Of a stretch of 26,530 nt of DNA, positions 6,658 through 26,529 are shown one piece after another (positions within the stretch are counted from its first letter, which is position 1; every line of letters begins with the position of its first letter). The notes below the pieces were generated by a model. The model worked only from the letters and a program-made list of their open reading frames with translations, was not told where the DNA came from and ran no database searches. The translations under genes and the position numbers were made by a program. This DNA comes from Promethearchaeota archaeon. Lineage in GTDB: Archaea; Asgardarchaeota; Lokiarchaeia; Sigyniarchaeales; SOKP01. The stretch spans positions 117,047 to 143,576 of the forward strand of contig SHMW01000001.1 in assembly GCA_008080735.1 (NCBI GenBank). The letters are read 5' to 3'.

Positions 6658-7593
6658 TTATATTTGCTCTTGGCATTTTAATTCTGCTTCAAGCCTCTTC
6701 CATTGCTTATCTATTTGATCTTGAAGCTCCATTAGCGTTTTTTCCGATATTCCAGAAAATCGTTTTTGTTGAGAGATATATTCAATCAAGGGTACTCTTT
6801 TATCAGGATCTAATAGACGTCTACTCGGTTTAGAAAGTGTTTTTACTCCATTTTCTACTTCATACAATACCCAAAATCCTGACTTCACTGCTAATTTAGC
6901 AATCTCAATTGTATCTTCTGCAGAATATCCCCAACCTGGTGGACATGGGGCTAATATATGAATATATCTACATCCTTTAATTTCCTTAGCTTTCTTAAAC
7001 TTATCGTAGAGATCTAATGGTTCTGACACACTACAAGTTGCGACATAAGGAATATCATGTGCCTCCATTATCCTTGGTACATCCTTCTTAAATTGCTGTT
7101 TACCGAATGGTGTAGTTGTTGTTTTGGCCCCATGTGGGGTTGAACTACTTCTTTGAATTCCTGTGTTCATGTAAGCTTCATTATCATAACATACATATAT
7201 CATGTCTGTGTTTCGCTCAGCTGCACCGCTTAATCCCTGAATACCGATATCTGTTGTCCCTCCATCTCCAGCAAACGTCATAGCTGTCATATCTTTCCAC
7301 GGACCATCAGGAAATCTTTCTGCCTTAGCTTTAAATGCTGCATCAAGCCCCGTCGCTGCTGCCGCTCCCGCCGCAAATGCCATATTCAGGAAGGGGAAGT
7401 TTGGAGCAGTTTTAGGCCATAGTCCAACTACAACATTTAAACAAGATGCCGGTGCGACTAACGAGGTTTTCGGTCCTAAAGCTTTCATAGCCCAGCGTAG
7501 AGCTATTTCGAGTCCACAACCCGCACAACACGAATTTCCTGGGAGAAAATACTCATCACACGCGTCTTCCAAAACTTCTTTTATAGTTGTCAT
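6658..7593 (-). CDS. porB: 2-oxoacid:ferredoxin oxidoreductase beta subunit (TPP-binding)
   Basis: CAGCG, GDGG...DNEAYMNTGIQRS and PCPPGW. GGAGGTGA lies 7 nt before ATG 7593. Substrate (pyruvate vs ketoisovalerate) cannot be determined by eye. Confidence 0.92.
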   Translation of the reverse strand: MTTIKEVLEDACDEYFLPGNSCCAGCGLEIALRWAMKALGPKTSLVAPASCLNVVVGLWPKTAPNFPFLNMAFAAGAAAATGLDAAFKAKAERFPDGPWKDMTAMTFAGDGGTTDIGIQGLSGAAERNTDMIYVCYDNEAYMNTGIQRSSSTPHGAKTTTTPFGKQQFKKDVPRIMEAHDIPYVATCSVSEPLDLYDKFKKAKEIKGCRYIHILAPCPPGWGYSAEDTIEIAKLAVKSGFWVLYEVENGVKTLSKPSRRLLDPDKRVPLIEYISQQKRFSGISEKTLMELQDQIDKQWKRLEAELKCQEQI

Positions 7594-23016: not shown

Positions 23017-24075
23017 CTAATCTTTTGTACCTAAAAAATGATCTAATGAAACTTGTTGCGATGAATCATCTAACTTTTTAAGTCGGTCTAAAGCATTTTC
23101 TACGCGATTCATGGAAAAATTATGGGCTTCTACAAGTAGTTCCGTAATATTTTCATATTGAATTTTTTTCCATGCGAAATCGGGATATTCATTATTTACC
23201 CTGGGATTAAGGAAAATATGTTTTATTTGGGCAACTAAATCTAAATCCAAAGCGATTGTTTTTCCCGCTGCCTTTACTTTATTGTTTACCATATTTTCAA
23301 TATTTCCGTGTTCTTGGATTAGATTTAGCGCCGTTTTCTGTCCAATTCCTTTTATTCCCGGAAAAAAATCTGTTCCTATTAAAATGCCCATTTCGATCAG
23401 TTGTTCTTGTGTAATGTTAAACTTCTCTAAGAATTTATTAAGTGATATATATTCAATATCTAAAGTGACTGTGGTATTTCTCACTTTTTTGCTTCTACTT
23501 ATCGCAAAATTACGAACTAAACGTTTCCCCCCAAATAAGAGGGTGTCATAATCTTGGGACGCACACGCCCATGCATCACCTTGCCGAACCATATATGCGG
23601 ACTGAGCTTCACCTTCTGAGGCCGCTTGGACCACTGGAATTCCCATATACTCTATCAGTTTTTTACTTTCATCAATCATATCGGAATCAAGTTTAGAAGT
23701 CATTTGAGCGAATTTTCTTGCATCCTCCATATTCCCTGCCTCTTGAGCTTGTATCATCTTTTTTTCTGCTTCCTTTTTCACTTCTCTTCGTTCTTGAATA
23801 GTGTCTAGCTTTAAATCCGAGGGCGTTCCATCGAACACGTAAATTGGCTTAATATTATGTTCAAGAAAGTTTATAGTCCTATAAAAGAGTCCTGATAAAT
23901 GAGAGGTAATGTTTCCTTCAAAATCTTTAAGAGGTGTACCATCTCGTTGTCGAATAATTGCTAAAAACTGATAAATTGTATTGAATGCATCAATCGCGAT
24001 TCTTTTCTGAAAAAGTTGTTCAAAAGTAATTGTCCTTTTGACTTTTTTTACTAAATCATTTATCTTAATACCGAT
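23017..24075 (-). CDS. fen: Flap endonuclease 1 (start uncertain: ATC 24075 or GTG 24087)
   Basis: IAIDAFN.IYQFL, TSHLSGLFYRT, VFDG, EGEAQ, SQDYD.LLFG, GTDF.PG.KGIG.K.A and a C-terminal PIP box QVSLDHF. Confidence 0.97.
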   Translation of the reverse strand: MGIKINDLVKKVKRTITFEQLFQKRIAIDAFNTIYQFLAIIRQRDGTPLKDFEGNITSHLSGLFYRTINFLEHNIKPIYVFDGTPSDLKLDTIQERREVKKEAEKKMIQAQEAGNMEDARKFAQMTSKLDSDMIDESKKLIEYMGIPVVQAASEGEAQSAYMVRQGDAWACASQDYDTLLFGGKRLVRNFAISRSKKVRNTTVTLDIEYISLNKFLEKFNITQEQLIEMGILIGTDFFPGIKGIGQKTALNLIQEHGNIENMVNNKVKAAGKTIALDLDLVAQIKHIFLNPRVNNEYPDFAWKKIQYENITELLVEAHNFSMNRVENALDRLKKLDDSSQQVSLDHFLGTKD

Positions 24076-24166
24076 GCTAATTTTCACCCCTAATTTTTTC
24101 TATTATTTTATTATATTTAATACTGAATAAAATTGTATCGAACCAATTTTTTCAAGTTCCAAATAA

Positions 24167-24733: not shown

Positions 24734-24967
24734 TTATTTAACTAAGTCTAAGAATTCTTGCTCGGTGATGATGGCGGTGCCTTGCTCTCGGGCTTTGGTA
24801 ATCTTGGTAGTCTCCTCTTCGGCGTTGCTGACCAAGTAATCTAAATCCTTTACGATGCTGGTCTTGGGGATACCGCCCTTCTGCTCGACCAACTCGTGCG
24901 CCTCCCTTCTGGTCATCGACTCGAGCTTGCCCGTGAAACACACCTTCTTGCCTTCAATACTTACCAT
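24734..24967 (-). CDS. Stand-alone BRCT-domain protein (LigA-type)
   Basis: CFTGKL..MTR.EA..LV...GG.....VK.LDYLV...K..KA...G..IITE..F. Own SD-like GGAGGG upstream of the ATG. Confidence 0.92.
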   Translation of the reverse strand: MVSIEGKKVCFTGKLESMTRREAHELVEQKGGIPKTSIVKDLDYLVSNAEEETTKITKAREQGTAIITEQEFLDLVK

Positions 24968-25140: not shown

Positions 25141-26529
25141 TTACTCGAGCAACTTTAAGAATTGGGCTTCGGTGATGATGGTGGTGCCCTGCTCTTGGGC
25201 TTTCTTGTATTTGGTGGTGCGCTCGGTCGAATTCGTCACTAAGTAGGAGAGATGTTTGGTCACGCTGCTCTTCGGCTCGCCTCCGTTGGAAATAACGAGG
25301 TCGTGTGCTTCTTTTCTTGACATCGTGATAAGTTTTCCCGTGAAGCAAAAGGTAAGTCCTTTCAGCTTTCCTTCCGTGATGGGTTCTGCGATCTTGACCT
25401 TCTGGGTTTTTAAGAGTTGTTCCATTTCGGGATATAGTTTCTCTACTCCTTGTTGTAGGGTTTGTGCGGTGATCTCGGCATACCCGTCGATCTGCGAAAG
25501 CTCGTGGATTGAGGCTGTTTTGATGGCTTCTAAGGTGTCGAATCCTGCCTTTACGGCTTTTTTGACCATCCGCTCTCCCAAACCCTCGATATCAAATCCC
25601 GCGATAAAGCGTTCTAAAGGGATCTGCTTCACTGCCAATAAGTTGTTAAGAGCTTTTTTAGCTGACTTCTCTTGGACCCCTTCCAGCTTCGTGAGGTCGG
25701 ATATCTTAAGAGTATAAAGGTCGGCAATTTTTTGAATTCTTTGAGTTTCATATAGAGGTCTGAGGATAAGTTTCTCGGAAAAATGTTTGATGTCGTTCTT
25801 TTTGATCCATTTGACGATCCTCCGATATCTGACGTTGGGGCAGTCCTCGTTCGGACAATAGAGGCGGCTCCCCTCGTTGATAAGATCGCTTTCACACGCC
25901 TCACATTTAATCGGGATCACAATCTCTTCTGCACCCTCAGGGGTTGCGATCACATACTCGATCTTGGGGATGATGTCTCCCCGCTTAGAAACCATCACTT
26001 TGGAGCCGATCTTAACGCCTAATTGTCCCATAATATCGGGGTTTGCCAAGCTTGCTCTCTGAACGGTGCTTCCCAATAGTTCCACTGGCTCGATGAGCGC
26101 GACGGGGGTATAATTAGCACCGCTCACGCTCCATTCCACATCGATAAGGGTGGAATCTATCATCTCGGCGGGGAATTTGAAGGCGATCTGGGATTCTGGC
26201 TTGGCTCGTTTCATATCCTCTCGGTCGATCTCCCTGCCTTTGATCACCAATCCGTCGATCTCGTAGTTTAATGAGTCACGGATTGAGTCGATGATCTCCT
26301 GGCGGGTCTCGATGACTTCTTGGATTGTATGCACGGTCTTGGTCTTGACCACCTCGAATCCTTGCTGTTGTAACCATCTGACTTTTTCGATCTCGTCGTG
26401 AAAGGTAATTTGCCTATTGGAAGTCCACGCGTCATAGACAATGAGATTGAGGTCGTCACTTCCCTTGTGATCTTTTCTCCGAATAATTCCCGCAGCTGCA
26501 TTGCGTGGGTTTTGATTATCGGAATATTT
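25141..26529 (-). CDS. ligA: NAD-dependent DNA ligase, 5' part outside the window
   Basis: The frame stays open from 26352 to the window edge (KYSDNQNPRNAAAGIIRRKD...). YEIDGLVIK, IAFKF, OB fold (RASLAN, KRGDIIPKI), C4 Zn finger (CEAC...CPNEDC), HhH repeats and C-terminal BRCT. Confidence 0.96.
   Translation of the reverse strand, partial: KYSDNQNPRNAAAGIIRRKDHKGSDDLNLIVYDAWTSNRQITFHDEIEKVRWLQQQGFEVVKTKTVHTIQEVIETRQEIIDSIRDSLNYEIDGLVIKGREIDREDMKRAKPESQIAFKFPAEMIDSTLIDVEWSVSGANYTPVALIEPVELLGSTVQRASLANPDIMGQLGVKIGSKVMVSKRGDIIPKIEYVIATPEGAEEIVIPIKCEACESDLINEGSRLYCPNEDCPNVRYRRIVKWIKKNDIKHFSEKLILRPLYETQRIQKIADLYTLKISDLTKLEGVQEKSAKKALNNLLAVKQIPLERFIAGFDIEGLGERMVKKAVKAGFDTLEAIKTASIHELSQIDGYAEITAQTLQQGVEKLYPEMEQLLKTQKVKIAEPITEGKLKGLTFCFTGKLITMSRKEAHDLVISNGGEPKSSVTKHLSYLVTNSTERTTKYKKAQEQGTTIITEAQFLKLLE

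Follow-up and report, generated by a model that had tools for sequence, protein, structure and literature searches.

Which codon starts the translation of fen1? In the window (the whole stretch of 26,530 nucleotides that was analyzed) this core replication gene is encoded on the minus strand, and gene callers place its start at a GTG codon (24087). A preliminary description of the locus proposed instead that fen1 initiates at an ATC codon, and had stated that there is no ATG near the N-terminus. The comparative analysis presented here supports that proposal on three grounds, namely the alternation of the codon among relatives, the existence of lineages that have an AUH codon (AUU, AUA or AUC) at this position together with an upstream stop, and the recovery of the same sequence in independent assemblies. 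Translation of fen1 thus probably begins at the near-cognate AUC (24075-24073), by means of a Shine-Dalgarno (SD)-like GGGGUGA located 8 nt upstream.

The 5′ end of fen1 in the window

Reading the frame back to the in-frame TAG at 24102-24100 confirms that it contains no ATG near the N-terminus. The minus strand from 24091 to 24064 reads directly as AGGGGTGA AAATTAGC ATC GGT ATT AAG, AAATTAGC being aaattagc, and downstream of the TAG the frame of fen1 continues as AAA AAA TTA GGG GTG AAA ATT AGC ATC GGT. GTG 24087, ATT 24081 and ATC 24075 are the only in-frame start candidates at this 5′ end; past the ATC, no canonical start occurs in frame until a GTG at codon 80 (79 codons on). The elements of the region are the following:

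24073..24075, minus strand: ATC, proposed fen1 initiation codon; aligned with the ATG, TTG or GTG of orthologs and with Met1 of solved FEN1 chains; the same in a second strain
24084..24090, minus strand: GGGGTGA, SD-like motif, 8 nt upstream of the ATC (GGTGA-to-ATC spacer)
24085..24087, minus strand: GTG within the SD-like motif, rival start chosen by the ORF caller, which would add the four residues M-K-I-S ahead of I-G-I-K
24079..24081, minus strand: in-frame ATT, minor rival start, just 2 nt after GGTGA and outside the functional plateau of spacings
24100..24102, minus strand: in-frame TAG that closes the frame upstream (direct reading)
23017..24075, minus strand: fen1 coding sequence if started at ATC, 352 codons and a stop; identified by Pfam and PDB alignment, catalytic motifs intact, dN/dS of 0.086 against the closest relative (L058)
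24040..24135, minus strand: recombinant 5′ module, from about -60 to +36, which matches the distant relative L051 while the remainder of the gene matches L058
24113..24134, minus strand: two TATA-like boxes, candidate promoter, AATTTTAT at 24134-24127 and TTAAATAT at 24120-24113 (direct reading), conserved in L051

Two further details of the preliminary description proved correct. The GTG of the ORF caller (24087-24085) lies inside GGGGTGA, and the SD-to-ATC spacer is 8 nt vs 7 nt at porB, the gene at 7593 on the minus strand, which reads GGAGGTGA followed by 7 nt and ATG. RNA folding around the start codon in three modules revealed no significant structure (z scores of -1.65, -0.76 and -0.31).

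Identity of the product and its N-terminus

The gene codes for FEN1. Its product matches the Pfam families PF00752 (XPG_N, 77.5 bits) and PF00867 (XPG_I, 94.1 bits), and PF01367 (H3TH/5′-3′ exonuclease C-terminal fold) at 37.7 bits, slightly below the 40-bit cutoff. The best PDB match is P. horikoshii FEN-1 (1mc8, E=2.6e-96), and the E-values against archaeal and eukaryotic FEN1 structures (1mc8, 1b43, 1rxv, 1a76, and 3q8k) range from 1e-96 to 1e-59. The metal-binding carboxylate motifs AIDA, VFDG, SEGEAQ, SQDYD, and GTDF align with those of P. horikoshii FEN-1, and none of the AUH-start genes has lost any of them, as judged by inspection of the alignments by eye. Most genomes of the family also possess a second FEN1-like paralog (about 34% identity, frames of 350-420 aa) with a normal ATG GGA start, for instance at loci L042 (G000:C64:746-1750, G000 being the genome of the window), L043 and L044.

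The glycine encoded next to the ATC aligns with residue 2 of the PDB chains 1mc8, 1b43, 1rxv, and 1a76. Gly2, at the processed N-terminus of FEN1, is part of the active site (PMC5490271), a premise on which the preliminary description had relied and which that source states. MG is called at the N-terminus in 115 of the 120 best homolog clusters. The sources of the homologs assign them to Lokiarchaeota or Promethearchaeota. Judging from these alignments, the FEN1 of the window would have a Met-Gly N-terminus only if the ATC is the start. Archaea do not follow this N-terminal rule without exception: in the PDB alignment, chain 2izo, the FEN1 of S. solfataricus, starts five residues further on than the others.

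The start codon among orthologs

fen1 is present in all of the related genomes searched (41/41). The 5′ ends of 42 whole-genome copies were read and 41 were counted, the copy at locus L029 being broken there. At the position of the window's ATC these 41 orthologs have ATG, TTG, GTG or ATC. Most have ATG; TTG is found in L003, L015, L022, L027, L030, L034, and L041, and GTG in L032. ATC occurs in L019, a locus from another genus (genome G022), as it does in the window. The neighboring codon specifies Gly in all 41, as well as in every other fetched copy with an intact 5′ end. A conserved-N-terminus pattern run over the 154 genomes of the order detected a canonical start in 92 genomes (TTG in 6, GTG in 1), and ATH at fen1 only in the window genome and in G022, ATC in both cases. 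AUH matches to the pattern in G090, G096, and G099 were rejected because they are short ORFs matched by chance and not fen1.

AUH codons at this position are also found in additional relatives. The 5′ end of a 78%-identical relative (L051, P0008) is GGGGTGA-ttagc-ATC GGT ATT, and six assemblies (L052-L057, P0067) carry an identical ATA module, GTGAT-gtatt-ATA GGT GTT, whose protein has been called ten residues short. In these six assemblies there is a TGA in frame three codons upstream, no canonical start between this TGA and the ATA, and an in-frame ATT directly before the ATA. In L019 an in-frame TGA immediately precedes the ATC; the first canonical start beyond the ATC is codon 56, the use of which would remove the first active-site region. 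Because of these stops, directly or three codons upstream, an intact FEN1 in L019 and L052-L057 requires AUH initiation. According to a maximum-likelihood tree, AUH arose at this codon at least three times independently: in the window and L051 (ATC), in L019 (ATC), and in L052 (ATA). The codon therefore alternates among ATG, TTG, GTG, ATC, and ATA across relatives, as the preliminary description had predicted.

A genuine N-terminal extension was looked for in the other fen1 orthologs and none was seen. P0043 is called with two extra residues (MAMG), but its ATG sits at the normal position and the additional residues are likely a caller artefact.

Some copies show peculiarities of their own. 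In L019 (also L061, G022:C126), a mini-ORF of three in-frame codons and a stop (ATG GTG ATA TGA) starts 12 nt upstream of the ATC and ends exactly at it. This mini-ORF shares sequence with the GGTGAT SD, and termination-reinitiation might take place there instead of SD-led initiation. The 5′ end of fen1 in L029 (G017:C132:3017-6751) is divergent: Met-Gly is missing, and AAT stands where orthologs have their start codon. The C-terminal part of this copy is split by a TAA, and the gene is possibly broken or its assembly faulty. Some genomes, such as G012 (L018 and L037), G060, and G103, have a pair of fen1-type copies that show the conserved N-terminus, and one of the G012 copies has a very long branch.

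A recombinant 5′ module

The genome of the window is a metagenome-assembled draft of 4.1 Mb (33.6% GC, 140 contigs). The closest relative of its fen1, L058, shares 93% protein identity and has an ATG start. From about codon 13 on, the two genes show 84-100% nucleotide identity, whereas the first 36 coding nucleotides of the window gene have 10 differences vs L058 and 3 vs L051. The ATC is thus carried on a distinct module of about 100 nt, comprising promoter, SD and start codon, which has been exchanged or retained across species. The recurrence of this module across species argues that it is functional.

The 5′ region of the window, including the ATC, is identical in the JGI metagenome contig L068. 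This contig belongs to another strain, since 37 differing positions and 7 gaps separate it from the window over 3 kb (98.6% identity). The L051 version of the module is likewise identical in three samples. An assembly error, which the preliminary description had named as a result that would overturn its proposal, is excluded by these independent assemblies. A metagenome scan found relatives, none of them of the same species. The dN/dS values between the AUH-start fen1 genes and their relatives are 0.05-0.10.

The surroundings of fen1 differ as well. In relatives, genes for PIN_6 and NAD kinase are found upstream of fen1, unlike in the window; upstream synteny has therefore been rearranged, approximately where the recombinant 5′ module begins. 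The window also contains a stand-alone 77-aa BRCT ORF (24734-24967, minus strand) just downstream of the gene for an NAD-dependent DNA ligase (25141-26529, minus strand), and this ORF closely resembles the C-terminal BRCT of the adjoining ligase.

SD signals and AUH starts in the genome

Of the signals found upstream of ATG in the window genome, motifs with a GTGA core show the strongest position specificity, and the spacing from GGTGA to ATG has a genome-wide plateau at 4-9 nt. This spacing was measured to the first ATG, because the GTG within GGTGA otherwise counts as the first start at spacers of 5 and 8 nt. At the AUH codons of fen1 the spacers are 8 nt (ATC of the window), 5 nt (ATC of L051 and L019) and 6 nt (ATA of L052); in L051 the in-frame ATT overlaps the SD itself. 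A simple regular-expression search of the draft genome for the 16S 3′ end did not find it, and the anti-SD is taken as a general archaeal assumption. The SD is missing from most genes of the genome, as also described in PMC12993045. The analysis of promoter and TATA geometry genome-wide, with a fixed motif set and de novo 6-mers, yielded only diffuse signals that do not place the transcription start sites.

The use of AUH codons as starts was studied with 271 SD instances, each at the 5′ edge of an open frame that spans 150 codons or more and has no canonical start in reach. SDs of canonical starts were left out and the results were profiled by distance, because codons beside true starts inherit their SD. 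In-frame AUH makes up 31.2% of the codons situated 5-7 nt after the SD anchor vs 11.3% further downstream (p=3.6e-15), and composition-matched control codons have a flat distance profile. The enrichment is found for ATT (OR 4.4) and ATA (OR 2.1); for ATC alone it is not significant in these 271 instances (OR 1.6, p=0.23). Of 43 SD-preceded AUH candidates that are followed by 15 or more codons free of canonical starts, 29 are ATT, 12 ATA, and 2 ATC. fen1, with its spacer of 8 nt, falls outside this 5-7 nt candidate set and is the only convincing ATC case in the genome. AUU and AUA starts seem to be common in this genome. Among the candidates in the window genome are C61:+ index 22458 (ATA), C46:- index 13132 (ATT), and C14:- index 37548 (ATT); one of the 43 is a crotonase-family protein that would lose its conserved N-terminal motif with any canonical start.

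The sole aIF1/SUI1 gene of the genome (L069, G000:C103:457-3672, frame 1414-1746) has a frame bounded by TGA. Its first canonical codon is a TTG at codon 16, inside the CPVC...CVC zinc knuckle, with none before the knuckle. ATT AGC is present at codon 4, 9 nt after GTGA, and the same pair of codons lies upstream of the fen1 ATC. From this arrangement, aIF1 appears to start at ATT AGC. In Sulfolobus, according to work cited in PMC6237735, aIF1 discriminates against non-canonical starts.

These observations suggest, with slightly less than even confidence on our part, a lineage in which start-codon selection is generally relaxed. AUU and AUA, and occasionally AUC, may start about 1/12 of the SD-led genes, including those of a core replication nuclease and of the fidelity factor aIF1. 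The fen1 start codon could then be an evolutionary tuning knob (AUG, UUG, GUG, AUC or AUA) exchanged between species via recombination of the 5′ module.

Which codon is used?

Certain data speak against AUC. An in-frame GTG and an in-frame ATT are present upstream in the window, as they are in L051, and the AUH peak of this genome lies at 5-7 nt after the SD, not at 8, with no enrichment of ATC alone. Initiation at the GTG, perhaps on a leaderless or nearly leaderless mRNA with its 5′ end in GGGGUG, would extend the protein by four residues (three in L051), and we consider it unlikely. The two known copies of the module, those of the window and L051, differ by a 3-nt indel that falls between this GTG and the ATC, yet both keep the GTG in frame, as would be expected of a coding stretch. 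Spacers of 2, 5 or 8 nt, however, automatically bring a GTG within GGTGA into frame, and this is also the case in L020 and L027, whose starts are normal; the frame of the GTG is thus only a weak argument. The TTAAATAT box, 33-26 nt before the GTG in the window and 31-24 nt in L051, has a geometry compatible with a leaderless GUG mRNA, but there is no sharp leaderless TATA signal genome-wide and a second box, AATTTTAT, stands further upstream. In a leaderless mRNA, transcription would begin only a few nt from the start codon, and the TATA box would have its centre some 26-27 nt before it. GUG is accepted as a start in all archaeal mRNA types, leaderless included (PMC7531240), and the scarcity of SDs in this genome and the choice of the gene callers fit a GUG start too; the later start of 2izo also counts against AUC. 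Nevertheless, no SD precedes the GTG, an upstream start is unusable in L019 and L052, other fen1 orthologs lack a genuine extension, and an added MKIS would bury the Gly2 amino terminus that is used in catalysis (PMC5490271). We infer from the comparison that AUC is used over the in-frame GUG.

Initiation at the ATT (24081), giving M-S-I-G-I-K, is very improbable. It could be expected from ATT being the most enriched non-canonical codon after SDs and from the apparent start of aIF1 at the identical codon pair; however, the distance to GGTGA is just 2 nt in the window, the codon overlaps the SD in L051, and the conserved FEN1 N-terminus would again be extended. It is hardly credible that the ATC is a sequencing or assembly error for ATG, or part of a decaying pseudogene backed by the FEN1-like paralog. 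The draft nature of the genome, with its 140 contigs, and the existence of that 34%-identical paralog (G000:C64) would be in line with such readings, but another strain, assembled separately, carries the identical ATC module, three samples contain a related one, and the ATC sits on a distinct recombinant haplotype. The ORF is intact, and the low dN/dS values exclude a pseudogene.

Initiation at AUC could proceed as follows. GGGGUGA would pair with the 3′ end of the 16S rRNA, putting AUC in the P site, where the initiator Met-tRNA would pair with it with a third-position mismatch. The protein would begin with Met-Gly-Ile-Lys, and removal of Met would expose the Gly2 amino terminus. Such a weak codon would mean low output and might hold FEN1 production down. 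The many weak TTG starts of fen1 orthologs suggest that a low rate of synthesis is tolerated or preferred.

If confirmed, the AUC start of fen1 would indicate that near-cognate initiation is physiologically used in this lineage, in a core replication gene with a recurrent AUC/AUA start. It would also mean that standard gene callers systematically mis-annotate such N-termini, by four residues too many here and ten too few in relatives. Because the FEN1 N-terminus is functionally constrained, fen1 would be a clean test case in which a single N-terminal peptide decides. The question bears on the stringency of aIF1-dependent start selection in the lineage from which eukaryotic scanning evolved.

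Comparison with known systems

With archaeal and eukaryotic FEN1 proteins (1mc8, 1b43, 1rxv, 1a76, 3q8k) the window gene has in common the domain architecture, the catalytic motifs and, if started at AUC, the M-G-[VI] N-terminus. It differs in the start codon only, although some crenarchaeal chains (2izo) have a shorter N-terminus.

AUU starts are known in bacterial infC, which encodes IF3, and in E. coli pcnB. They likewise consist of a near-cognate AUH after an SD, and their weak initiation can be regulatory. infC is autoregulated by a factor that discriminates start codons, whereas no such loop is evident for fen1; in the window genome this analogy would fit aIF1 rather than fen1. In E. coli, the codons AUA, AUC, AUU, and CUG yield about 1-2% of the output of AUG (10.1101/063800).

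The closest parallel in kind is dnaA of Deinococcus, for which an ATC start was proven by N-terminal proteomics (Baudet et al. 2010, PMC2830850). Like fen1, it is a core gene of DNA replication that regains its conserved N-terminus only when ATC is taken as the start. Its N-termini had been called heterogeneously, and Met is removed before a small second residue, as would happen in FEN1. However, the dnaA case is bacterial and rests on proteomics, and the ATC is conserved across the genus; that of fen1 comes from an Asgard archaeon and rests on comparative evidence, and its codon toggles among ATG, TTG, GTG, ATC, and ATA between close relatives. In a literature search, neither AUH starts in Asgard archaea nor a non-AUG start of fen1 turned up, an absence that is in itself no proof. 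Near-cognate starts are thus already known, and the AUC of fen1 would be a further case, within what looks like a lineage-wide habit.
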